The notes under the pieces: generated by a model
What the model was told of the DNA's origin: nothing
What the model saw: the letters and a program-made list of their open reading frames with translations, nothing else
Database searches by the model: none
Assembly (NCBI GenBank): GCA_044225365.1
Contig: JBGAIQ010000019.1
Coordinates: 32,001-96,000, forward strand
Length of the DNA: 64,000 bases
Direction: 5' to 3'
Source of the DNA: Planctomycetota bacterium
Lineage (GTDB): Bacteria; Planctomycetota; B15-G4; JADJEK01
Program-made: the position numbers and the translations under genes
Part shown: positions 5,514-19,298 of the stretch, piece after piece
How the letters are laid out: each line of letters starts with the position of its first letter
Position numbering within the stretch: position 1 is the stretch's first letter

Positions 5514-7589
5514 ATGACGACGACGATCACGAGAGACCGGCTGCGACGAAAGGCGTCCCCGGCTCTGCTGTTCCTCTTCACTCTTGCGAGCGCCGCGACG
5601 GCCGAGGATCGCCATCCACTCACGATCCACGACATGCTCGCGATGCAGCGCGTGGGGGACGTCGCCGTGTCGGCGGGCGGCACCAAACTCGCGTTCACCG
5701 TGCGCACGACGGACGTCGCCGCGAACACGGGTCGCTACGACGTGTGGCTCGTCGATGCGAAGGAGGGCGGTCCGCGTCGCCTCACGTCGAACGTCGCGAA
5801 CGACACGTCCCCGCGTTTCTCGCGCGACGATCTCTCGATCTACTTCCTCTCGTCCCGCAGCGGGTCCTCGCAGATCTGGTCGCTGTCCCTCATGGGCGGC
5901 GAGCCGACGCAGATCACGGACCTGCCGCTCGACATCGACAACTTCCTCGTCTTCCCCGATGGCCGTCGATTCCTCGTCTCCATGGAGGTGTATCCCGACG
6001 CCAAGGACCTCGCCGAGACCGCGGCGCGCGATGAAGCGAAGGCGAAGTCCAAGATGAAGGCGAAGGTCTACGACTCGCTCCTGTTCCGCCATTGGGATCA
6101 GTGGGAGGACGGCAAGCGCAGCCATTGGTTCACGCTCGACGCCGTGACGGGGAAAGCGACCGACCTGATGGCGGGCATGCCTTGCGACGCTCCGAACAAA
6201 CCGTTCGGCGGTGCGGAAGAAGCGACGATCCGGAACGACGGCAAGACGGTCGTGTTCGCGACGACGAACATGGGTCGCGAGGCGGCGTGGTCGACGAACG
6301 TCGATCTCTACAGCGTTCCTTCCGACGGATCCGCGGCGCCGACCTGCCTCACCACCGACAACCCGGCGACCGACAATCTCCCGCAATTCTCACCCGACGG
6401 ACGTTTCCTCGCGTACGTCGCGATGAAGCGGCCCATGTACGAATCGGATCGTCAGGGGCTCATGATCCGCGAGGTCGAGAGCGGAAAGGTCCGTGAGATC
6501 GCGCCCAACTGGGATCGTTCCGCGAGCGGCTTCACGTGGAGCCGCGACGGAAAGACGCTCTACGCGACCGCCGATCACATCGGCAACACCGGCCTGTTCG
6601 CCGTCGACGTCGGAAGCGGCACGGTGAAGCCGCTCATCGAGAAGGGCGCCGCGGGCGGCCCGGTCGCGATCGAGGGCGGAGTTGCGTTCCTCTGGAACGA
6701 CATGAAGCACCCCGATGAGATCCACACGCTCGACGCCGCGGGGAATCGAAAGGTCCTGACCGCGATCAACGCACCGCTGCTCGAGAAGATCGCCTTTGGC
6801 GACTACGAGCAGTACTCGTTCAAGGGCGCGCACGACGACACGGTCTACGGCTACGTGATGAAGCCGTGGAACTACGAGAGCGGCAAGAAGTACCCCGTCG
6901 CGTTCTTGATCCACGGCGGCCCGCAGGGCTCGTTCTCGGATCACTTCCACTATCGTTGGAACGCCGAAGCGTTCGCGGGCCGCGGACTCGGCGTCGTGTT
7001 CGTCGACTTCCATGGGTCGACGGGATACGGCCAGGCCTTCTGCGACTCGATCCGCGGCGATTGGGGCGGCGCACCGTACGAGGACTTGATGAAGGGCCTC
7101 GACGCCGCGCTCGCGAAGTACTCGTTCCTCGATGGCTCGCGCGTCGCGGCGGCGGGCGCGAGCTACGGCGGTTACATGATCAACTGGATCGCGGGCCAGA
7201 CGGATCGCTTCAAGTGCCTCGTCTGCCACGACGGCAATCTCGACAACCGAATGGCCTACCTCGACACCGAGGAACTCTGGTTCGACGAATGGGAGCACCA
7301 CGGCACGCCGTGGGAGAATCCCGACGCGTTCAGCAAGCACAACCCGATCGACTTCATCAAGAACTGGAAGACTCCGACGCTCGTCCTGCACGGCGGCAAC
7401 GACTTCCGCGTCGTCGATACGCACGGCATGGCGACGTTCACGGCGCTGCAGCGCAAAGGGATTCCGTCGAAGTTCGTGTTCTTCCCGGACGAGAATCACT
7501 GGGTGCTGAAGCCGCAGAATTCGATCCTCTGGCACGACAGCGTGCTCGACTGGATCGATCAGTGGACCAAGTCGCCGCCCGCCAAGTGA
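5514..7589 (+). CDS. S9 family (prolyl oligopeptidase/acylaminoacyl) peptidase, secreted
   Basis: Signal peptide, PD40/TolB-like propeller, IHGGPQ, GASYGG nucleophile, DFRV Asp and ENHW His. Confidence 0.92.
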   Translation: MTTTITRDRLRRKASPALLFLFTLASAATAEDRHPLTIHDMLAMQRVGDVAVSAGGTKLAFTVRTTDVAANTGRYDVWLVDAKEGGPRRLTSNVANDTSPRFSRDDLSIYFLSSRSGSSQIWSLSLMGGEPTQITDLPLDIDNFLVFPDGRRFLVSMEVYPDAKDLAETAARDEAKAKSKMKAKVYDSLLFRHWDQWEDGKRSHWFTLDAVTGKATDLMAGMPCDAPNKPFGGAEEATIRNDGKTVVFATTNMGREAAWSTNVDLYSVPSDGSAAPTCLTTDNPATDNLPQFSPDGRFLAYVAMKRPMYESDRQGLMIREVESGKVREIAPNWDRSASGFTWSRDGKTLYATADHIGNTGLFAVDVGSGTVKPLIEKGAAGGPVAIEGGVAFLWNDMKHPDEIHTLDAAGNRKVLTAINAPLLEKIAFGDYEQYSFKGAHDDTVYGYVMKPWNYESGKKYPVAFLIHGGPQGSFSDHFHYRWNAEAFAGRGLGVVFVDFHGSTGYGQAFCDSIRGDWGGAPYEDLMKGLDAALAKYSFLDGSRVAAAGASYGGYMINWIAGQTDRFKCLVCHDGNLDNRMAYLDTEELWFDEWEHHGTPWENPDAFSKHNPIDFIKNWKTPTLVLHGGNDFRVVDTHGMATFTALQRKGIPSKFVFFPDENHWVLKPQNSILWHDSVLDWIDQWTKSPPAK

Positions 7590-8254
7590 CGGCGGATCCA
7601 GAAGCGCTTCAGTGTGCGGGGGCTGTCCTTCGGGAGTTCGCCGCGTCCATGCACGATCCGCGTGTTGTCGACGTAGAGGCTCTGGCCCGGCTCGAGTCGC
7701 ACGTCGATCCGCGGCGAGGATTCGATCGCGTCGGAGAATCTCCGAAAGGTCTCGCGAACCGCCGGGTCTTCGATCGGAGCGACGTTCCAAGCGGCGTAGT
7801 AGACCCGCGGCCCTCCGCTGTCACGCGAGAGCAGCGGGACGAGCGTCGCGTCGAGGCGGCCGTCGACGTCCGGGCAACGCATCGTGATCTGGCCGAGACG
7901 ATCGCGATCGTCGTCGCTCAGTGAGTCGAGGATCGGCCTGCTGTCGACGAGGCGCGTCGCGCCCCCGATCTCCGCCGCGCGGACGCAATACCACGCGATC
8001 CGATCGACGTAGTGCTGATCCGTATGCAGTCCGAGTTCGCGCGGCGAATGCGCGCCGCGCGGACTGTTGCCGAGCTTGATGTCCTCGATTCGCAGGACGC
8101 TACCCAGGCATCTCCCGAGGTGGTAGAACGACCCGACGCGAATCGGTTGCTCGAGCACGTGGAAGCCGCGAGATTCCAGATCCCGCTCGATCATGGCGAC
8201 CGCTGCGGCGCCATCGAACGGGACTTCGCGAGGAGTGTCGGTCGATGCGGACAT
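7559..8254 (-). CDS. TauD/TfdA-family Fe(II)/2-oxoglutarate dioxygenase
   Basis: LHTD (HxD) motif, WYCVRAA..GGATRLVD, and DNTRIVHGR..R distal His/Arg motif. Confidence 0.82.
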   Translation of the reverse strand: MSASTDTPREVPFDGAAAVAMIERDLESRGFHVLEQPIRVGSFYHLGRCLGSVLRIEDIKLGNSPRGAHSPRELGLHTDQHYVDRIAWYCVRAAEIGGATRLVDSRPILDSLSDDDRDRLGQITMRCPDVDGRLDATLVPLLSRDSGGPRVYYAAWNVAPIEDPAVRETFRRFSDAIESSPRIDVRLEPGQSLYVDNTRIVHGRGELPKDSPRTLKRFWIRRHLAGGDLVH

Positions 8255-8345
8255 CACGATGTCGTATCCTCTCGGAATCTTCTCGCTTTCGTCGGCGACT
8301 CGGAGCGGCATTCGACATGACCAACGAACGGGGCAGCGAGCGCAA

Positions 8346-8852
8346 ATGAGCTACTCCACTCCATACCACGAACACGGCGTTCCCATCGACTCCGAGTTCT
8401 GTCGCGGCTCGAACACGGCGCGCAAGGCGCGACACGTTCTCGAGGATTCGCGCAGATTGCTGGGTTGCGACGAGGCCGCTCTCTGGGTGTTCAGCAAGGA
8501 CAACCAGAATCTCGTCGCCGCGCTGAATCACGGCAAGCACGAGAAGAGCGTCGAGGGACTCGAGGTCCAGATCCGCGGTTCGCTCGTCGGGCTCGTCGCA
8601 ATGACGGGCGAGGGCATCTGCGTAGGGCCCGATGCGAACTACAACCCGGAGGTCGCCCGCGCCCTCGACGTCAAGACGTACGCGATGGTCGCCGCCGCCG
8701 TCGTGGTCGACGACGAGATCTGTGGCGTGATCTCCGCGGTCAACCTGTACGGGACGACGGAGTCGATCTTCACCGTCGAGCACCTGCGTGCGGTGCAATG
8801 GGCGGCGTACGTCATGGGTCTCGTGCTCTCGGATTGCAAGAAGCGTGATTGA
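8346..8852 (+). CDS. Stand-alone GAF domain protein
   Basis: ..AALWVFS..GSLVGLVAMTGEGI..MVAAAVVVDDEICGVISAVN..FTVEHL is a GAF-type pattern. Confidence 0.75.
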   Translation: MSYSTPYHEHGVPIDSEFCRGSNTARKARHVLEDSRRLLGCDEAALWVFSKDNQNLVAALNHGKHEKSVEGLEVQIRGSLVGLVAMTGEGICVGPDANYNPEVARALDVKTYAMVAAAVVVDDEICGVISAVNLYGTTESIFTVEHLRAVQWAAYVMGLVLSDCKKRD

Positions 8853-9636
8853 CGCGCCGCTCACCGACGACGAATTGACCGCCGCGACCGGCGAGGGAAT
8901 TCGGGTGCTCGTGATGGACTCCGGAATCGAGTCCGATCACCCGACGCTCGTCGGCCGCGAGATCCCGAACTTCGAGGTCCTGCCGTTCCCGATCGGCGCC
9001 GACGTCACGTATCGAGTCCAATCGGCGCCCGGCGGCGATGCGTTCGGGCACGGAACCGCCGTCGCTTCCCTGCTCGTCGCGCATGCGCCAGGCGTGAAGA
9101 TCGAGAGCTTGCGGATGCTCGACGCCGATCGTCAGGGCAGTTCCGAGCGCGTCCTCGCCGGGCTGCGCTGGGCGATCGAGCGGCGCTTCGACATCGTGAA
9201 CTGCAGCTTCGGCACCTTCGGTCCGTCGACGACCAAGTTCCTCGCCTCCTACAAACGAGTCGTCGACATCGCATTCTGTGAGAACGTGCTGCTCATCGGC
9301 GCGTGCTCGAACTCGGACCATCGACTGACGTCGCTCCCGGCCTCGTTCCCGACCGTGCTCTCGACCGATGCCGGACGGATCGAGGATTCGCCGCTGCCGA
9401 AGGTGAAGCGACGCAAGGGACAACTCGTCGAGTTCGTGACGCGCGGCGTCGACGTCTCGGTGTCCTGGAAGGATGGCAGTTCGCGCCTCGTAACGGGTAG
9501 CAGCTTCGCTGCCCCGCACCTCGCGGCGCTCGTCGCCCGCATCCGACAATTGCGACCGCATTGGAATGCTTGCGAGATGAAGGCGGAGTTGTACCGTCGA
9601 TCCGAGCCCGTCACGGCCGCGGACGACGCCGACTGA
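8845..9636 (+). CDS. S8 (subtilisin-like) serine peptidase, no signal peptide or prodomain
   Basis: Triad motifs VMDSGI, GHGTAVAS and TGSSFAAPH. GTG start overlaps the end of the GAF gene. Confidence 0.88.
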   Translation: MIDAPLTDDELTAATGEGIRVLVMDSGIESDHPTLVGREIPNFEVLPFPIGADVTYRVQSAPGGDAFGHGTAVASLLVAHAPGVKIESLRMLDADRQGSSERVLAGLRWAIERRFDIVNCSFGTFGPSTTKFLASYKRVVDIAFCENVLLIGACSNSDHRLTSLPASFPTVLSTDAGRIEDSPLPKVKRRKGQLVEFVTRGVDVSVSWKDGSSRLVTGSSFAAPHLAALVARIRQLRPHWNACEMKAELYRRSEPVTAADDAD

Positions 9637-9711: not shown

Positions 9712-10383
9712 GTGAGTGAAGCCGACGAATCGAAGAAGCCATCTCCATCGCTCGTACGCGCTCGCGGCGAGCCCTCGCTCGCAGAGTCCGCGCGCGAGTG
9801 GGATGCGTTCTTCACGAGCGGCAGGTATCGCGAGGAATGGCACCTCGATCAGGCGTCCCCCGAACTCATGTGCCTGCTCGCAGCGGGGATCGTCGTGCCG
9901 CCAGGGCGCGCGCTCGACCTGGGTTGTGGAGGTGGCACGGAGGCCGTGCATCTCGCGCAACAGGGTTTCACGGTGACGGCCCTCGACGTTTCGGGCGAGG
10001 CACTTGCGATGACTCGGCGGCTCGCGGCGCGGCGCGGCGTCAAGCTTGCAACGCTTCAGGCCTTCGTGCCGAGAACCGAGCTCCCCGACCAGTCCTTCGA
10101 CTTCATCAATGATCGCAGCTGCTTCCACGCCATCGAGCCGAGGCTCGAGGTGCTCACCGCCTACGCCGCGGAGATCCAGCGCATCCTGGTTCCGGGCGGC
10201 GTCCTGTTCATTCGCAGGTTCGGTCAGCCGCAGATCTCCCTCTCGACGTTCTCGTCCGTATTCTCAGAAGAAGCCGGATTCGATCTCGGGCGCGTTCAAG
10301 AGGTCCCCTTCCACGAACCTCATTTTCCCTCGCGAGTCGCCGTGATCCGGTGGCGGGGGAAGAGTGCGTCGCGAGCATCATGA
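9712..10383 (+). CDS. Class I SAM-dependent methyltransferase
   Basis: ALDLGCGGG motif I, VTALDVS, FDFINDRSCFH, LVPGG. Confidence 0.88.
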   Translation: MSEADESKKPSPSLVRARGEPSLAESAREWDAFFTSGRYREEWHLDQASPELMCLLAAGIVVPPGRALDLGCGGGTEAVHLAQQGFTVTALDVSGEALAMTRRLAARRGVKLATLQAFVPRTELPDQSFDFINDRSCFHAIEPRLEVLTAYAAEIQRILVPGGVLFIRRFGQPQISLSTFSSVFSEEAGFDLGRVQEVPFHEPHFPSRVAVIRWRGKSASRAS

Positions 10384-10396
10384 TGGAGGCAGTCGC

Positions 10397-11578
10397 ATGA
10401 GCATCGTCCTCGACCGTCGATCGTCGTCGCAGCCGCAATCGAACGATCCGCGAACCCTCCTTCCGCTCGAGGTGTTCTTCCAGAACATCCGCTACGTGAC
10501 GCTCAAGCTGACGAACGGCTGCAATCTGAAGTGCTCGTACTGCAACGTCGAGGCCGATTCGCCCACCACGCCGAAGATGAAGATCGAGACCTTCAAGAAG
10601 GTCGCGAAGCTCCTCATCGAGAACTCGAAGTTCCCGCAACTCGGACTCGAATTTCACGGCGGCGAGCCGATGCTCCTCCCCGATGCGTGGTACGAAGAAG
10701 CGGTCGGTTACGCGGGAGAACTCGCGAAGAAGCACGGCAAGTTCATTACGCATCCGCTGCAGACGAACGGCACGTTGCTCACGGAGGAACGCGCGAACAA
10801 GCTGATGTCGCTCGGAATCCAGATCGGCTTCTCGATCGACGGTCCGCCCGACATCAATGACAAGATGCGCGGCGCCGGCAAAGCCGTCGAGAAGGTGATT
10901 CGACGCATGAAGTCGCAGGGCCGCGGCTTCGGCTGCCTGCTCGTCCTGAACCGCTCGAACTGCAATCACATGTACCGGGTGATGGACTATTTCCGGGAGA
11001 TCGGGATCGAGAACTACCGGATCAACTTCCTGCAGCCGCAGGGTCGTGGCTTGACGCAGGATCTCCTGACGGCGGAGGAGATGTTCGCGGGTCTCAAGGG
11101 CATCTTCGATCACATGCTCGACACGAATTGCTCGGTGCTCGAGTCGACGACGCAGACGATGGTCCAGCGGTTCGCGATCGGTCGCAATCCGCAGCCGGCG
11201 CTCTCCTGCTGGGAATTCCAGTGTCAGGCCGGCCGCGTCTATTGCGCAATGAACGATCGCGGCGAACTCCACGCCTGCGGCACGGACATGCAGCACCATC
11301 GACTCGGTGACATCGACACGCCACTGAACCGCCCGCACGTGGAGGCGGTGCTGAAGAAGCTTCACCACAAGGACGAGTGGTACGTGCGCTGCTTCGACTG
11401 CAAGGCGCGGCGCATCTGTTCGATGTCGTGCCCGACGAGCGACCACAACGATCTCTTGTATCGCGAACGCGAGTGCGCGTACACCAAGATGATCTACCGC
11501 TACTACGCGGAGAACGAAGACAAGGTGCTGCAGCTCCATGCCCGGCTGCAGCAACTCCGCCCGAATGGGGCGATGTAA
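10397..11578 (+). CDS. Radical SAM/SPASM-domain peptide maturase
   Basis: CNLKCSYC (CX3CX2C), FHGGEP, QTNG and SIDGP motifs. C-terminal Cys-rich SPASM region with CFDCKARRICSMSCP..EC (CX2CX5CX3C). GGAGG RBS. Confidence 0.92.
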   Translation: MSIVLDRRSSSQPQSNDPRTLLPLEVFFQNIRYVTLKLTNGCNLKCSYCNVEADSPTTPKMKIETFKKVAKLLIENSKFPQLGLEFHGGEPMLLPDAWYEEAVGYAGELAKKHGKFITHPLQTNGTLLTEERANKLMSLGIQIGFSIDGPPDINDKMRGAGKAVEKVIRRMKSQGRGFGCLLVLNRSNCNHMYRVMDYFREIGIENYRINFLQPQGRGLTQDLLTAEEMFAGLKGIFDHMLDTNCSVLESTTQTMVQRFAIGRNPQPALSCWEFQCQAGRVYCAMNDRGELHACGTDMQHHRLGDIDTPLNRPHVEAVLKKLHHKDEWYVRCFDCKARRICSMSCPTSDHNDLLYRERECAYTKMIYRYYAENEDKVLQLHARLQQLRPNGAM

Positions 11579-11641: not shown

Positions 11642-12088
11642 ATGGCTATCGTCCGCAGTGAGGACGGCCGTTTCTTCGACGTCGACGACACGGAACTCGA
11701 CAAGCATGAGATCAAGCCGGAAGACCTCCCGACCGGATCGGTCTACGCCCGCCCGCAAGGTGGGCCCGGGATGGGCGGTCCCGGCGCCGGTGGACCCGGG
11801 ATGGGCGGCCCGCGCGGCGGCGGCGGTGGTCCGGTGCAACTCGTCATCAATCTCGGCGGCGGCGGTGGAATGGGCGGCGGTGCGCCGCAGATGGGCTCCG
11901 GCCCGCAGGCGTCGGGTCCGGTTCAGCGCGGTCAGGGCGGGCAACAGGCCGGCGCGCGCGGTGATGTCCAGGCTCACAATTGGTGCGGCATGCCGTGGCC
12001 GTGGGGCAACTGGCACAACTGGCACAATTGGAACAACTGGAACAACTGGATGAACTGCTGGAACAACTGCTGGCACAACTGCAGCTGA
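11642..12088 (+). CDS. Putative RiPP precursor peptide (148 aa): acidic leader, Gly/Pro/Met-rich spacer, (WxN)8/Cys core
   Basis: AAGGAG RBS. C-terminus is DVQAH-NWCGMPWPWGNWHNWHNWNNWNNWMNCWNNCWHNCS. Located between the rSAM/SPASM and DUF692 genes. Confidence 0.85.
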   Translation: MAIVRSEDGRFFDVDDTELDKHEIKPEDLPTGSVYARPQGGPGMGGPGAGGPGMGGPRGGGGGPVQLVINLGGGGGMGGGAPQMGSGPQASGPVQRGQGGQQAGARGDVQAHNWCGMPWPWGNWHNWHNWNNWNNWMNCWNNCWHNCS

Positions 12089-12185
12089 GATCCAGCGCGG
12101 GGTGCGCCCGGTCGAGCGACCGCGCGCACCCCGCTCACCTCGAATCCCTCGTCCGTCCAAATCGCCCGGCGCCGAAGAGGTCCTC

Positions 12186-12575
12186 ATGACTCGGGTCTAC
12201 TCTCTCGATGGTCGCGTCTTCGAACTCGACGAATCGATGCTCGCCAAGTCGCAGATGGCGGCCGAAAAGGTGAGTCGCCTGATCGACAAGGACACGTTGC
12301 CCGAGCCGCCGCCGGTCGGCGACTTCCCGCAACAGGGCATTCCGCCGCACATCCAGCAGATGCTCGCGCAAGGGGTCGAACTGCCGATCCCCGAGGAAGC
12401 GCGTCACCTGGTGCGTGCGCGCAGCTTCATGGACGGAACGATCGTCATCGACATCGACGTTCGAGCGCTTCCCGGTTCGTCGGCGTGCGGGGGTCCCGCC
12501 TGTGGGCCCGCTCCGCGCGATCCCGCGGGGCAAACGCGGCCGGGCGAATGCGACTCCGGGGCCCGTCCGGCATGA
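12186..12575 (+). CDS. Small protein with precursor-leader-like N-terminus (second precursor or partner protein)
   Basis: MTRVYSLDGRVFELDESMLAK aligns with the precursor's MAIVRSEDGRFFDVDDTELDK. GAGG RBS; stop overlaps the DUF692 start (ATGA). Confidence 0.7.
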   Translation: MTRVYSLDGRVFELDESMLAKSQMAAEKVSRLIDKDTLPEPPPVGDFPQQGIPPHIQQMLAQGVELPIPEEARHLVRARSFMDGTIVIDIDVRALPGSSACGGPACGPAPRDPAGQTRPGECDSGARPA

Positions 12576-13711
12576 GGCCACGGCTTCCGGCGTACGGAGT
12601 GGGCATCGGCTACCGATACTGCATCCATCGCGAGATCTTGCGCTGCGCGCCGATGATCGATTTCCTCGAAGTCCCGTCGGAGGATTACGTCGAGGACGAT
12701 CGGCGAGCGCGATTCGATCCCGACGAATCCCTGCTGCGCGCCGCGGTCGAACGCTTCCCGTGCGTCGCGCACGGCACGGGTCTCTCGCTCGGCACTGCCG
12801 CGCCGCCGGATGAGAACTATCTGCAGCGGCTCGCGAACTTCGCCGAACGGACGCCGATCGGCGAGTATTCCGAGCACCTGTCGTTCATCCGCGGGATCGA
12901 TCACGAGGTCGATGCGTTCATGGCGCTCCCGTTCACCGACCTCGGCGTCGCGATCGCCGCCGAGAACGTGATGCGTTCCGCTCGAGCTCTCGGCGTCCCC
13001 TTCCTCGTCGAGAACGTGAGCTACTACTTCGCGCTGCCGGAGTCGACGTACAGTGAGGCCGAGTTCATCTCGCGGGTCGCGCAGGCTGCTGATTGCGGCA
13101 TCCTGCTGGATGTCGCGAACCTCCACATCAACGCCACGAATCACCATTACGACCCCGAGGCCTTCATCCGCGCCTTGCCGAAGGAGCGCGTGCTCCATTC
13201 GCATTTCTGCGGCGCGAGCCGAGGTCCGGATCGGTTCCTCTACGACACGCACTTCGAAGTGACGATGCCCGCCGTCTGGCGCATCCTCGATACGGCGTTG
13301 CGGGAGACGGCGCTGCGTGCGCTCGTGTTCGAACGCGATCAGCGGTTCGTTCCGTTCCAGGAGCCGATGGAAGAGATCTTCCAGGCGCGCGAGTTGTTCC
13401 GCCGGCATCGCAAGACCAAGCCATTGCTGCCCGTCACGACGCACTCGCCGGCTCCCGCGGGTGGCGACGATGCGGTCTACTCTCGGGAGTTGCGAAAGCT
13501 CCAGGACGTGCTGTGCCGGTTGTTGACCGACGAGGATCTCGGGCGCGCGGTCGAGCGCGAGGGTGAAACCGCGCTCGTCCACACCGGGATCGACCGCGAT
13601 TCGCGGCGCATCCTCGCCGCGATTCCGGGCGTCGCGCGCGAGCGCATCGGCCGGCGGCTGCGCGAGCGGCTGCGAAAGGGTGGGCGCTCCAACGTGGAAT
13701 CGTTGCCATGA
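12572..13711 (+). CDS. DUF692 / multinuclear non-heme iron-dependent oxidative enzyme (MNIO) with C-terminal helical extension
   Basis: GVGIGYR, HGTGLSLG, YSEHLSF, LVENVS, LLDVANL..N, HSHFCG, YDTH and VFERD motifs of DUF692, plus an extra C-terminal region of about 90 aa. Confidence 0.88.
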   Translation: MRPRLPAYGVGIGYRYCIHREILRCAPMIDFLEVPSEDYVEDDRRARFDPDESLLRAAVERFPCVAHGTGLSLGTAAPPDENYLQRLANFAERTPIGEYSEHLSFIRGIDHEVDAFMALPFTDLGVAIAAENVMRSARALGVPFLVENVSYYFALPESTYSEAEFISRVAQAADCGILLDVANLHINATNHHYDPEAFIRALPKERVLHSHFCGASRGPDRFLYDTHFEVTMPAVWRILDTALRETALRALVFERDQRFVPFQEPMEEIFQARELFRRHRKTKPLLPVTTHSPAPAGGDDAVYSRELRKLQDVLCRLLTDEDLGRAVEREGETALVHTGIDRDSRRILAAIPGVARERIGRRLRERLRKGGRSNVESLP

Positions 13712-15600
13712 CCGAATCGAGAGATCCGGGGCCGCCGCCGGGCATGAAGGACGCGGGACCTCCGAAGGGAGTTGCGGATAGTGGTCCGCCGCCGGGGATG
13801 AAGGACGAACCCCCGGCCGATGGCGGTCCACCGCCCGGGATGATCGACGCCCCGCCGAAGCTGGATCGGGAGACGATCGCGTTCTTCGTACCCTACGTGC
13901 GAAAGCAGCGCGGACGTCTCCTCGCGATCCTCGGCATGCTCCTGTTCTCCGCGCTGATGCCGGTCGCGATGAGCTTCCTGCCGACGAAGCTCGCTCAGAA
14001 TTGGCATCCGGGCGGCGAACACGAAGTCATGAAGTGGCTCGTGGCATTCCTGGCGCTCTCGGTCGTCGCGCTCACGCTCGCGCCCGTCCAGGGTTATCTG
14101 ACGGCGCGCGTCGCGCAGGACCTCGCGTGTGATCTGAAGGGCGCGATCTTCCGCAAGGTCGGCGCGATGTCGAAGACCGCGATGGCGTTCCGGTCGGTCG
14201 GATCGCTCGCGCATCGCAGCTCCGGCGATGTCGCTCATCTCCAGGAGTTCCTCGCCCGCTTCGTGCCCGATGCCGTCGCGAACGTGATCCAGCTCGTGTT
14301 CGTCGTCCTCGCGATGCTCTGGCTGCAGCCGGTCATCGCGATCGTCGGGCTCGTCCTCGTTCCGACGATCTGGTTCATCATGGACCGCTTCAACGCGAAG
14401 GTTCGACTGCTCGCACGCAGTTCGCAGAAACAGAGCGAGTCGTCGCTCACGCGGCTGATCGAGGGCGTCGCGGGGTACATCGATCTCGTCGCCGCCGGAC
14501 GCTTCCCCAAGGCCGCGGACGAATACGTGAGCGTGCTCGACGATCTGCGGCGCACGGCGATCAAGATGACGCTGACGAGTTCGATCGCCGCGCTCATTCC
14601 GAGCATCGCGTTCATGGCGATCACGAACGGCTACTACTTCGTCGCCGCGGCCGACGAGAAAATGCTCGCCGCGACGACGGTCGGATTCGGCCAGGTGATG
14701 ACCTTCGTTTCGCTGATCAACGTCGTGCGCATGCCGATCATGACGCTCGCTCGGTTCTTCACCGAGACCGCGATCGCCGCTCCGAGCTTCCACGAAGTGA
14801 AGAAGCTCCTCGAGTCGCCCGAGGTGTCCGCGCCGACGCACGGCGTGAAGATCGACGGCAGCGCGATCGAGTTCAAGGGCGTGGTATTCAGTTACGGCCC
14901 AGGCTTCCCGCCCGTGCTCGATGGCGTCTCGTTCCGGATTCCCGAAGGGAGCTTCACAGCGATCGTCGGCGAGACCGGGTCCGGCAAGACGACGCTCTTC
15001 CACATGCTGCTGCGGCTCCTCGAGCCGACGAGCGGAGAGATCCGCCTCGGCAACTCGACGCTCGGCGCGATCGCCCTCGAGGATTTGCGGTCGTACGTCG
15101 GATTCATTCCGCAGTCGCCTTTCCTGTTCGATGCGACGATTCGTGAGAACGTCGCGATCGCGCTCGCCGAGAACGAAGTCGATCAGGAGCGATTGCTGCG
15201 GGCCGTGAAGCTCGCGCGGCTGGAGCCCGTCGTCGAGAAGCGCAAATCCCAGGGCGGACTCGATGCCAAGGTCGGCGCCGCCGGCGCGAGTCTCTCGGGC
15301 GGAGAACGGCAGCGCGTCGCGCTCGCGCGCGTCTTCCTGCGCGATCCCAAGATCATCGTCTGCGACGAATACACGGCGAACATCGACAACGCGACGGCGC
15401 GGATCATCCAGGAGTCGATCGCACGCGAATTCGCCGGGCGCACGCGCGTCGTCATCACGCATCAGCTCTACACGATCCGCGGGGCGGATCAGATCCTGGT
15501 GCTCGACCGCGGGCGAATCGTCGATCGGGGCACGCACGAGGAACTCGTCGCGCGCGGCGGGCTGTATCGTGAGATGTGGGAAGTCCAGCGGCTCGCGTGA
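13708..15600 (+). CDS. ABC exporter, fused permease/ATPase (no C39 peptidase domain)
   Basis: TM domain, Walker A GETGSGKT, LSGGERQR signature, Walker B IIVCDE, H-loop ITHQ. ATGA overlap with the MNIO gene. Confidence 0.92.
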   Translation: MTESRDPGPPPGMKDAGPPKGVADSGPPPGMKDEPPADGGPPPGMIDAPPKLDRETIAFFVPYVRKQRGRLLAILGMLLFSALMPVAMSFLPTKLAQNWHPGGEHEVMKWLVAFLALSVVALTLAPVQGYLTARVAQDLACDLKGAIFRKVGAMSKTAMAFRSVGSLAHRSSGDVAHLQEFLARFVPDAVANVIQLVFVVLAMLWLQPVIAIVGLVLVPTIWFIMDRFNAKVRLLARSSQKQSESSLTRLIEGVAGYIDLVAAGRFPKAADEYVSVLDDLRRTAIKMTLTSSIAALIPSIAFMAITNGYYFVAAADEKMLAATTVGFGQVMTFVSLINVVRMPIMTLARFFTETAIAAPSFHEVKKLLESPEVSAPTHGVKIDGSAIEFKGVVFSYGPGFPPVLDGVSFRIPEGSFTAIVGETGSGKTTLFHMLLRLLEPTSGEIRLGNSTLGAIALEDLRSYVGFIPQSPFLFDATIRENVAIALAENEVDQERLLRAVKLARLEPVVEKRKSQGGLDAKVGAAGASLSGGERQRVALARVFLRDPKIIVCDEYTANIDNATARIIQESIAREFAGRTRVVITHQLYTIRGADQILVLDRGRIVDRGTHEELVARGGLYREMWEVQRLA

Positions 15601-15648: not shown

Positions 15649-16698
15649 GTGACCTCGCAATCGGTCCACGGCCGCGGCGCGGCCGACAATCCCGACAACC
15701 GATTCGTCCGCCTCACGGTCGAGCCCGATCCGGAGTGCAGCCAAGAAGAGCGGGCGATCGTCACCGAGTACTTCGTCGATGCCTCGAAGACGATCCTGTC
15801 GCGCAACGACAGCCCCGACATCGGATTCGAGTTCAGCGTCAACCCTTATCGGGGCTGCGAGCACGGATGCATCTACTGCTACGCGCGGCCGACGCACGAA
15901 TACCTCGGCCTCTCCGCGGGGCTCGAGTTCGAGAGCAAGATCTTCGTGAAGGAGAAGGCGCCCGAACTCCTGCGCGCGGAACTGATGAACGAGAGGTGGC
16001 GGCCGCAGGCGATCAACTTCTCGGGTGTGACCGATTGTTATCAACCGCTCGAGCGACGGCTGCGCCTCACGCGGCGCTGTCTCGAAGTGCTGATCGAGTT
16101 CAAGAACCCGGCGGCCGTCATCACCAAGAGCGCGCTGATCGAGCGCGACATCGACGTGCTGGCCGAACTCGCGGCGATCGGCGGAGCGCTCGTGGGCATC
16201 ACGATCACGACGCTCGATGAGTCGCTCGCTTCCAAGCTCGAGCCGCGCGCCGCTTCCCCGCGGCGGCGAATCGGCGCGATCGCAGCACTGGCAAACGCGG
16301 GCGTCCCGGTGCACGTGATGACGGCGCCGATCGTGCCCGGGCTCACCGATCACGAGATCCCGGCGATCCTGAAGGCCGCTGCAGAAGCCGGTGCGCGGTC
16401 AGCGGGATGGACTCTTCTGCGGCTCCCGCACGCCGTGAACCCGTTGTTCGAGGACTGGCTCACGCGGTACGCGCCGGGTCAGAAGGAGAAGGTGCTGCGA
16501 CGCATCGAGGACGCGCGCGGCGGCGAGCGGCACGACTCCAGATTCCATGTTCGGATGCGCGGTGAAGGACGCATCGCCGAGGAAGTTGCCGACATGTTCG
16601 CCTTCGCGCGCGACCGCGCGGGCCTCGCGCCGGATGCTCCGAAACTGTCCGCGACGCACTTTCGTCGACCTGGCCCGCAACAGGGCAAGCTCTTCTGA
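15649..16698 (+). CDS. PA0069/Rv2578c-family (SplB-like) radical SAM protein
   Basis: NPYRGCEHGCIYCYARPTH, TDCYQPLE, LEPRA, and C-terminal QGKLF. Confidence 0.9.
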   Translation: MTSQSVHGRGAADNPDNRFVRLTVEPDPECSQEERAIVTEYFVDASKTILSRNDSPDIGFEFSVNPYRGCEHGCIYCYARPTHEYLGLSAGLEFESKIFVKEKAPELLRAELMNERWRPQAINFSGVTDCYQPLERRLRLTRRCLEVLIEFKNPAAVITKSALIERDIDVLAELAAIGGALVGITITTLDESLASKLEPRAASPRRRIGAIAALANAGVPVHVMTAPIVPGLTDHEIPAILKAAAEAGARSAGWTLLRLPHAVNPLFEDWLTRYAPGQKEKVLRRIEDARGGERHDSRFHVRMRGEGRIAEEVADMFAFARDRAGLAPDAPKLSATHFRRPGPQQGKLF

Positions 16699-16777
16699 TG
16701 GACCGCCAAGCTCCAGCTTGGCTCCTCTCTTCTCTTCCGATGGACCGCCAAGCTCCAGCTTGGCTCCTCTCTTCTCT
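16697..16777. repeat. Two identical 39-bp REP-like units (GATGGACC-GCCAAGCTCCAGCTTGGC-TCCTCTCTTCTCT)
   Basis: Units at 16697-16735 and 16739-16777 with an internal palindrome; between convergent genes. Confidence 0.82.
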
Positions 16778-19082: not shown

Positions 19083-19298
19083 GGAGCGCCGGGCTCTGCC
19101 CGGCAATGGGGCGGCGATGCGGAGGAAAGAAGATGCCAGGCTGGAGCCTGGCGGTCCGCCTGGCGGTCCGAATTTGGAGCGCCGGGCTCTGCCCGGCAAT
19201 GGGGCGGCGATGCGGAGGAAAGAAGATGCCAGGCTGGAGCCTGGCGCTCCGCCTGGCGGTCCACCTGGCGGTCCACCGGGCGCTCCGCCTGGTGGTCC
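19083..19298. repeat. BIME-like array: two copies (93-bp period) of an inverted REP pair plus ~12-bp CCTGGCGGTCC repeats
   Basis: GGAGC-GCCGGGCTCTGCCCGGC...GCCAGGCTGGAGCCTGGC-G(G/C)TCC starting at 19083 and 19176. Confidence 0.85.

Follow-up and report, generated by a model that had tools for sequence, protein, structure and literature searches.

A 64,000-nt stretch of a Planctomycetota bacterium contig (JBGAIQ010000019.1, positions 32,001 to 96,000; hereafter the window) carries a putative cluster for peptides made by the ribosome and modified after translation (RiPPs), and the gene under study is the open reading frame (ORF) at 12186-12575 (+), called X for short. X is a genuine gene of 129 residues. 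It stands between the gene of a peptide precursor and that of an oxidative enzyme dependent on multinuclear non-heme iron (MNIO), which is followed by the gene of an MsbA-like ATP-binding cassette (ABC) exporter; a radical S-adenosylmethionine (SAM) maturase (rSAM) is encoded just upstream of the precursor. Sequence comparison shows X to be a paralog of the precursor leader, and what sets it apart among RiPP leader paralogs appears to be that a conserved family keeps the leader domain only. At the family level X is best described as a core-less leader-domain protein, neither an MNIO-specific substrate nor an obligate MNIO partner. Two features are constant across the family: the slot between the last precursor gene and the exporter gene, and the location of the conserved part in the leader-like body. 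Tentatively, the role favoured here is that of a leader mimic that acts in trans, together with the rSAM/exporter module. A sequence-only reading of the window had called X a leader paralog translationally coupled to the MNIO, and had listed a second MNIO-specific substrate, a trans-acting leader or decoy and a folding partner of the leader as its possible roles. Its paralogy stands, and of the roles that it listed, a leader or decoy acting in trans is the best match to the family; its MNIO link is given up as a family trait, so the X gene is not to be seen as tied to the MNIO.

X and the leader of the precursor

The start codon of X, an ATG, has a Shine-Dalgarno (SD) sequence (GAAGAGG) about 6 nt upstream, and its stop codon shares an ATGA (12572-12575) with the start of the MNIO gene, so the coupling of the two genes that had been read from the sequence holds in the window. 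As had also been seen, the protein is devoid of Trp and its tail carries three Cys, at residues 101, 106 and 122. The N-termini of X and the precursor had been aligned without gaps; this alignment has 11 identical residues out of 29 and a BLOSUM62 score of 49, a value reached by none of 100,000 shuffles. Apart from the precursor and X, nothing among the 85,565 29-mers drawn from the window's ORF frames attains it. BLASTP of the whole proteins gave E = 0.003, with a 13-residue gap. Significance in profile-profile comparison had been named beforehand as the check on this alignment, and it was obtained at 94-95.5% with E-values of 1e-7 to 1e-8: hhalign gave 94.2% (E 1.2e-7, 30 columns) for the X relatives against a profile of 8 precursors and 95.5% (E 1.4e-8) for a 20-row X profile against the precursor profile, while nine X relatives compared with the precursor alone gave 91.8% (E 7.3e-7). 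The later strand that both proteins were said to have in common was recovered as well, since in relaxed hhalign runs TIVIDIDV, the last strand of the second hairpin of X, falls on VQLVINL of the precursor.

The duplication that separated X from the precursor is old, because the X profile favours distant precursors (L028, 8e-9; L027, 4e-8) over X's own neighbour (2.5e-4) and because X retains a helix, (E/D)KVxxL(I/L) or EKVxxLI in X itself, that the window precursor has lost. A tree was built from the first 100 residues of 16 X sequences and the first 80 of 15 precursor leaders, leaving out P0031 and P0034-P0036, which are shorter than 80 residues. The two groups separate in it with 97/99 support, and the X family is the sister group of the precursor leader domains.

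The part of X common to precursor leaders comprises residues 1-34 (12186-12287, +), predicted by AlphaFold2 (AF2) as a beta-hairpin (MTRVYSLDGRVFEL) followed by two short helices (E2-5, E11-14, H16-22, H26-34; block pLDDT, the predicted local confidence, 77-87). It is followed by LPEPPP (12297-12314, +), the local form of a motif LPxAPP that only the X family has and precursors lack; L38, P39, P42 and P43 show little or no variation in two X-family alignments. Residues 76-90 (12411-12455, +) form a second predicted beta-hairpin, LVRARSF-DG-TIVIDI (E76-80, E86-90; block pLDDT 80-84). The Gly/Pro-rich tail, residues 99-129 (12480-12572, +), holds Cys101-Gly, Cys106-Gly and Cys122-Asp and is predicted to be disordered; in residues 99-112 and 116-129 the pLDDT stays under 50. 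On a 10-row alignment, the AF2 model as a whole has two hairpins and three helices, the third being H54-62, with block pLDDT 77-87, a mean pLDDT of 68.6 and a predicted template-modelling score (pTM) of 0.29.

X has no W/Y/F-x-N repeat and no GDVQAH junction, the marks of a precursor core in this type of cluster. It matched no Pfam and no NCBIfam family at E <= 0.1, and residues 1-97 matched none at E <= 10. In these two databases, this covers the NHLP and Nif11 models as well as DUF2063, MbnC and related signatures of MNIO partners. Bufferin and oxazolin models (DUF2282, EGKCG-type) were likewise without a match, and the N-terminus MTRVYSLDGRVFELDES is polar, without the hydrophobic segment of a Sec signal. 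Compared with the Protein Data Bank (PDB), the model (pTM 0.29) found nothing at E <= 0.001 with Foldseek and reached a best Z of 2.4 in a wide VIA-align search. Among PDB sequences the sole match of the X profile was a designed beta-propeller (E 0.0026 across 25 residues), which was judged to be chance. A search of the ESM Atlas with X returned no usable match.

The X family and its place in related clusters

The X family was assembled from several searches: a word-indexed search found 2 relatives, an exhaustive hidden Markov model (HMM) search turned up 6 (E <= 0.001) among 1.84 billion representatives, and a profile search found 19, to which the proteins of genomes G237, G731 and G616 were added from genome searches. 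P0012, a 432-residue repeat protein among the HMM matches, was dropped as unrelated. The resulting 22 distinct sequences measure 59-139 residues, P0030 and P0032 being recorded with N-terminal extensions. They are kept as open frames over five sub-clades at 20-93% identity, and the nearest homologs of X are 93% and 65% identical, others ranging down to about 25%. Conservation throughout the family is seen in an N-terminal hairpin (MxRVxSLDGRxFE), at Leu19 and at Leu32, in LPxAPP and in a C-terminal hairpin with ..(I/V)I(D/N/E)(I/V).. as its end. No second copy of X was found in the window's own genome, and a search of genome contigs and metagenome contigs with the X alignment profile found no relative. 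Among 400 other genomes sampled from the phylum, G237 gave the only convincing match to P0001; a search of its order gave 1 of 20 genomes. Thirteen other genomes of the phylum sample, with E-values from 3e-5 to 9e-3, were judged noise, the matches lying inside long or unrelated frames.

The three-Cys tail is not a property of the family. Modifiable residues after the leader are not conserved across it: 17 of the 22 members are without tail Cys, and many stop about 4-6 residues past the last strand (e.g. ...INVVVPGVQ). Tails with Cys occur only in P0001, P0006, P0007, P0009 and P0010, one clade (93/88) that includes the window gene, is nested within the X group and is sister to the Cys-less P0011. 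The Cys-Gly tail is a derived trait of a single sub-clade of five members. In this sub-clade the Gly/Pro tails are some 12 to 50 residues long and hold 1-3 Cys, and 7 of the 10 Cys in the four non-redundant tails precede Gly (ACGG, ACGP, SCGP, ACGP, ACG, SCGP, TCGA).

The genomic contexts were found through the precursor profile and genome searches, which yielded 18 related clusters in which one or more enzyme or exporter genes adjoin a precursor. X is present in four of them, from different lineages, and each time it stands between the last precursor gene and the MsbA-like ABC gene. The order is precursor-X-MNIO-ABC in the window and GAF-S8-..-rSAM-precursor-X-ABC-MNIO in G237, where the cluster extends over two contigs with an end overlap of about 110 nt and where X and the ABC gene overlap as ATGA. 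G731, whose sequences are the same as those of metagenome locus L023, has GAF and S8 genes and, separately, rSAM-precursor-X-ABC; G616 has GAF-S8-rSAM-precursor-precursor-X-ABC. The sequence-only reading had made presence in homologous clusters a test of its proposal, and the outcome is divided: X is absent from 14 of the 18, yet conserved in a sub-family of four. Of the Cys-tailed sub-clade, these contexts cover the window gene. A hint of a fifth X-bearing cluster comes from P0028 and P0019, both listed on one European Nucleotide Archive (ENA) contig of 418,123 nt.

An MNIO gene occurs in 14 of the 18 clusters, two of which have X, and only in the window does it lie between X and the ABC gene. 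The PF05114 domain of MNIOs was not found at E <= 1e-5 in G731 (5.4 Mb) or G616 (3.8 Mb), genomes of which the completeness is not given, so that this is not proof of absence. Since the ABC gene comes after X in the three other X clusters, and 12 of the 14 MNIO clusters do without X, coupling to the MNIO is not a family trait. It is the X-linked ABC genes, four in number, that most resemble the window ABC gene (500-630 bits); in each of them 3-6 GPP repeats stand ahead of the first membrane helix. The slot of X is filled by a second full precursor in G402, G588, G743 and G456, relatives with tandem sets of two or three full precursors, and this fits an origin of X by tandem duplication.

X is separated from the precursor gene by a GC-rich stem-loop without a T-tract (12097-12134, +), directly after the precursor stop. 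The fold of 12086-12188 has an energy of -47.4 kcal/mol (z = -3.75) and none of 200 shuffles was as stable; a terminator scan called no terminator-like site at the stem-loop. Five of the seven intergenic regions that were folded have such a structure after the precursor, G237 and L027 being the two without, and it lies upstream of X both in the window (z = -3.75) and in L023 (z = -2.9). The position of X behind the stem-loop fits an enzyme-like rather than a precursor-like expression level.

Population data consisted of contigs from four DNA runs of four studies, which hold fragments of close relatives. None of the indels listed (all but 8 of the total) falls inside X, and X evolves faster than its neighbours while staying in frame. 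The indels listed in these contigs cluster in the Gly-rich linker of the precursor (window 11799-11851), whose length is plastic.

Possible roles of X

RiPP enzymes and exporters recognize their substrates by the leader peptide, which serves them as a handle, and leaders supplied in trans are a laboratory engineering trick. The favoured reading, a trans-acting leader mimic, would have the X family act in trans through its leader-like domain. The protein retains the N-terminal hairpin MxRVxSLDGRxFE with its helix, the DLP/LPxAPP segment and the late ..VIDI.. strand, and has gained a second strand and a helix, with no aromatic core. Because the hairpin-helix motif stayed conserved in both proteins since their old split, X and the precursor leader may bind the same partner. 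X would then dock on a leader-recognition site also used by the precursor, the likeliest owner of this site being the exporter or the rSAM. It would tune or assist processing and export at enzyme-like levels and would not itself be the product; its effect could be activating, competing or chaperoning, and the reading does not choose between these. That the family are ordinary precursors is contradicted by the 17 members without tail Cys and the many that end within a few residues of the last strand. The Gly/Pro tail with its Cys would be an addition of the window sub-clade alone, where it could plausibly be a secondary MNIO substrate; such a role is compatible with that of a leader mimic, as an added function.

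A bolder form of the same idea is rather doubtful. In it, X would be a natural stand-alone leader, a separately encoded copy that occupies the leader-recognition site of the exporter or the rSAM and thereby gates or activates the processing and export of a cyclophane peptide, and one lineage would have re-armed it with a Cys-Gly tail as a second MNIO product. The docking site on the exporter might in that case be the proline-rich N-terminus with its GPPxG repeats.

Several observations weigh against the leader mimic. X is missing from 14 of the clusters (L022, L025, L026, L027, L028, G401, which is also L034, G402, G747, G763, G743, G719, G781, G588 and G456), so that whatever it does is dispensable for such pathways in general. 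At identities as low as 45%, all five members with the tail still keep Cys, which suggests that the tail matters in the window gene and favours a substrate role for it. One of the 11 ABC genes from X-less clusters, that of G747, has as many GPP repeats as the X-linked ones. The X fragments of close relatives differ from the window at 29/299, 24/243 and 29/271 letters (about 90% identity), whereas the counts for rSAM/precursor and MNIO fragments from these runs are 26/542, 24/518, 11/259 and 11/263 (about 95-96% identity), and this faster divergence could reflect weaker constraint. With a pTM of only 0.29, the packing of the two halves of X is not established. Finally, the literature searched, outside of which lay subscription journals and some supplements, describes no precedent of a core-less stand-alone leader paralog.

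Next in standing, although somewhat unlikely, is a second precursor, whose leader would bring its own tail to the MNIO for conversion of the Cys-Gly cysteines to oxazolone-thioamide or thiooxazole. Chemistry of this sort changes the mass by about -4 Da per Cys. The rSAM would have nothing to act on in X, and the tail-less relatives would be degenerate or subject to other chemistry. In the window, X occupies the usual place of an MNIO substrate, directly upstream of the enzyme gene and ATGA-coupled to it, but the gene also occurs in two genomes without a PF05114 match, and it lies downstream of the post-precursor stem-loop, together with the enzyme genes. The two best models of the MNIO, HvfB and BufB, are both Cys-modifying, albeit matched below their cut-offs, and the substrates of such enzymes are Cys peptides (PMC12452194). 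The tail of X is predicted to be disordered, and its Cys, most of them followed by Gly, persist in five members out of five of the sub-clade; against this, most of the family lacks tail Cys and often the tail itself, and the family-specific conserved motifs (LPxAPP, second hairpin) are in the leader-like body, not in the tail. The precursor cores likewise open with Cys-Gly, and tandem second precursors fill the same slot in the four relatives named above, but X is without the GDVQAH-type motif that precedes precursor cores and the main precursor already supplies Cys to the MNIO. The MNIO-specific second substrate of the sequence-only reading is therefore untenable for the family, on account of the 17 Cys-less members and the two X genomes without PF05114 match, and survives as an option for the Cys-tailed sub-clade only.

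It is improbable that X pairs with the precursor leader as a pseudo-dimer through beta-sheet augmentation, serving as a chaperone or as a stand-in for a RiPP recognition element (RRE) that would bring the precursor to enzymes lacking one. The rSAM domain (PF04055) begins at residue 37, which leaves no N-terminal, RRE-sized domain in that enzyme, and no recognized domain was found in the MNIO extension; as far as tested, the earlier remark that neither enzyme has an RRE is borne out. X and the leader have in common strands that could pair according to the model, and X is encoded beside the precursor in all four X-bearing clusters. However, 14 of 18 clusters manage without X, including those of G402, G588 and G456 whose rSAMs are of the close clade (5e-133, 3e-138 and 5e-136, respectively), and X has no match to an RRE or PqqD fold, although its model is weak (pTM 0.29).

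That X is a functionless, decaying tandem duplicate of the precursor gene is very hard to believe: the missing core, the faster DNA divergence in relatives' contigs and the absence from most related clusters would fit decay, but the frame is intact, with SD sequence and ATGA coupling, frames stay open over five sub-clades at 20-93% identity with family-specific invariant residues that precursors lack, and the same slot is held in four clusters of different lineages.

If the leader mimic is the correct reading, a conserved leader-only gene between precursor and exporter would mean that cells, too, use a free leader, and X would be a ready-made tool to study or control the pathway. In the bolder form of the idea, X would represent a regulatory or assisting layer not described for RiPP pathways, and the window sub-clade a leader-only protein turning back into a precursor. 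As X is not tied to the MNIO, the exporter and the rSAM are also relevant when a Trp-x-Asn/MNIO cluster of this kind is reconstituted.

Known systems and neighbouring genes

Several known systems resemble X in part. Closest by analogy appear to be the protein-like leaders of the NHLP/Nif11 kind (PMC2887384; PMC12537861; bioRxiv 10.64898/2026.10.04.756588), the common point being a long leader, of about 75-95 residues and predicted to be structured, with a core-less homolog that stands alone; a relation in sequence is not seen, neither X nor the precursor having an NCBIfam or Pfam match, and X is encoded in the same operon as the precursor, next to it. Clusters with several precursors, such as the Nif11/NHLP-type sets and two-peptide lantibiotics like roseocin, also have adjacent paralogous genes with a common leader (PMC2887384; PMC10027976). 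X differs from these by the lack of an aromatic core, by a family of which 17 of 22 members have no candidate core, by its own motifs and by its separate clade. The oxazolins (HvfA, EGKCG motif) and bufferins present Cys-Gly in a disordered stretch just upstream of an HvfB/BufB-like MNIO (PMC12452194), as X does in the window, but X has no Sec signal peptide or family signature, the MNIO is under the cut-offs and the Cys tail is found in 5 of 22 members. Like the partner proteins of MNIOs (PME types 1 and 2, MbnC, TglI), X is a small protein of no named family that adjoins an MNIO and is coupled to it. Unlike them it precedes the MNIO, which partners usually follow, has no DUF2063 signature and is predicted to be mixed alpha/beta instead of a helical domain with a winged helix; it also occurs in genomes without an MNIO match and is missing from 12 of 14 MNIO-bearing relatives. 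The MNIO landscape survey defines the partner types and several 'adjamnio' families beside MNIOs (PMC12452194); none of the families described in its available part matches X, and the motifs of X and the precursor had no match in two of its supplementary files. A combination of MNIO, RRE partner and B12-rSAM enzyme is known from a biphenomycin-like pathway (PMC12257519).

The resemblance to triceptide precursors and three-residue cyclophane rSAMs (PMC11002830) is that of the neighbouring precursor, with W-x-N or W-R-N beside a SPASM rSAM; X has neither Trp nor an aromatic-x-Asn repeat, the rSAM is far below the named models and the chemistry is predicted only. The precursor (148 residues, 11642-12088, +) consists of a leader, Gly-rich linkers, GDVQAH and a Trp-x-Asn/Cys core, and has 8 homologs. 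The leader pattern of the family is MAI(V/L)RSxDG(R/K)F(F/Y)D(V/I)xDxxL.., followed by Gly/Pro-rich linkers around a strand (..QLVINL.. or ..VVIQI..), a GDVxxH-type junction and a core in which W-x-N or W-R-N is repeated and which in most cases has Cys, beginning with Cys-Gly. No NCBIfam or Pfam family matches it. Triceptide maturases link Trp to the C-beta of Asn/Arg at positions i and i+2 (PMC11002830), and a triceptide-like chemistry may be supposed for the precursor by analogy, but no more firmly than this because the rSAM scores far below every named model. Neither the precursor family nor the cluster type (GAF, S8, SPASM rSAM, long structured leader and W-x-N/W-R-N core, with or without MNIO) is described in the literature searched, where the sequence motifs were also unmatched.

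Some relatives of the precursor depart from this pattern. Those of L026 (446-841), L027 (6081-6443) and L028 (9935-10336) have aromatic cores without Cys that end in Asn-Tyr (..PNY, ..TNY, ..GNY), and the MNIOs of these clusters are divergent (E 1e-15 to 1e-21 against the window MNIO); MNIO chemistry cannot be on Cys there, as the cores have none. At L025 (380-778) the same leader precedes a His/Cys-rich core (..HGGHHCHHCHRCHRCHNCHHCHHCFF) that replaces the Trp repeats. G402 (L035, L036, L042, L043) has three orphan precursor genes remote from any rSAM, MNIO or ABC match, besides the two in its cluster. One metagenome contig (L024/L029) carries two precursors beside RND-efflux and conjugation-type genes, with no rSAM, MNIO or ABC match near.

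The MNIO gene (12572-13711, +) encodes a PF05114 protein (1.9e-69, residues 9-275) that is HvfB/BufB-like below the cut-offs, its best NCBIfam models being HvfB (193.9 bits) and BufB (188.8 bits). A C-terminal extension of about 95 residues (13424-13708, +) is modelled as four helices (pLDDT 78.7, pTM 0.63) and kept in two relatives, G237 and L034. It had no match in Pfam, in PDB sequences or with Foldseek at E <= 0.001, and may be a fused recognition domain. The MNIO stop and the ABC start overlap as ATGA, like the X stop and the MNIO start. The ABC exporter (13708-15600, +; Pfam/NCBIfam scan) is MsbA-like, and its N-terminal extension (window 13708-13870), on the cytoplasmic side, is built from repeated (D)PGPPxG/GPPPGM units with a composition like that of the Gly/Pro linkers of the precursor.

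Upstream of the precursor are the genes of a SAM-dependent methyltransferase (9712-10383, +; Pfam/NCBIfam scan) and of the radical SAM/SPASM maturase (10397-11578, +; PF04055 at residues 37-173). The latter has matches below threshold to the PapB, QhpD, DynA and cyclophane-forming maturase models of NCBIfam and scores far under the cut-offs of every named cyclophane maturase model. Further upstream, a GAF-domain protein gene (8193-8852, +) is paired with an S8 subtilase gene (8788-9636, +). This pair recurs in at least seven related clusters (window 8193-9636; L033 3508-5146; L058 6704-8009; L059 5651-7097; L028 11636-13124; L043 8326-9907; L066 10543-12032) and is a conserved component of them; the S8 subtilase is likely to be the leader protease.

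A TauD-family dioxygenase gene adjoins the cluster at 7559-8311 (-) and is also present in the G456 cluster (L066 4099-4860, phmmer 1.9e-28); it is a possible tailoring enzyme. After the ABC gene, a PA0069-family radical SAM protein (15649-16698; NF033668, 2.8e-138, above the cut-off) is encoded that was not seen in related clusters and is probably not part of the pathway. Two intergenic tandem duplications lie beyond, at 16690-16773 (2 x 42 nt, 98% identity) and at 19083-19262 (2 x 87 nt, 99% identity, spacing 93 nt).

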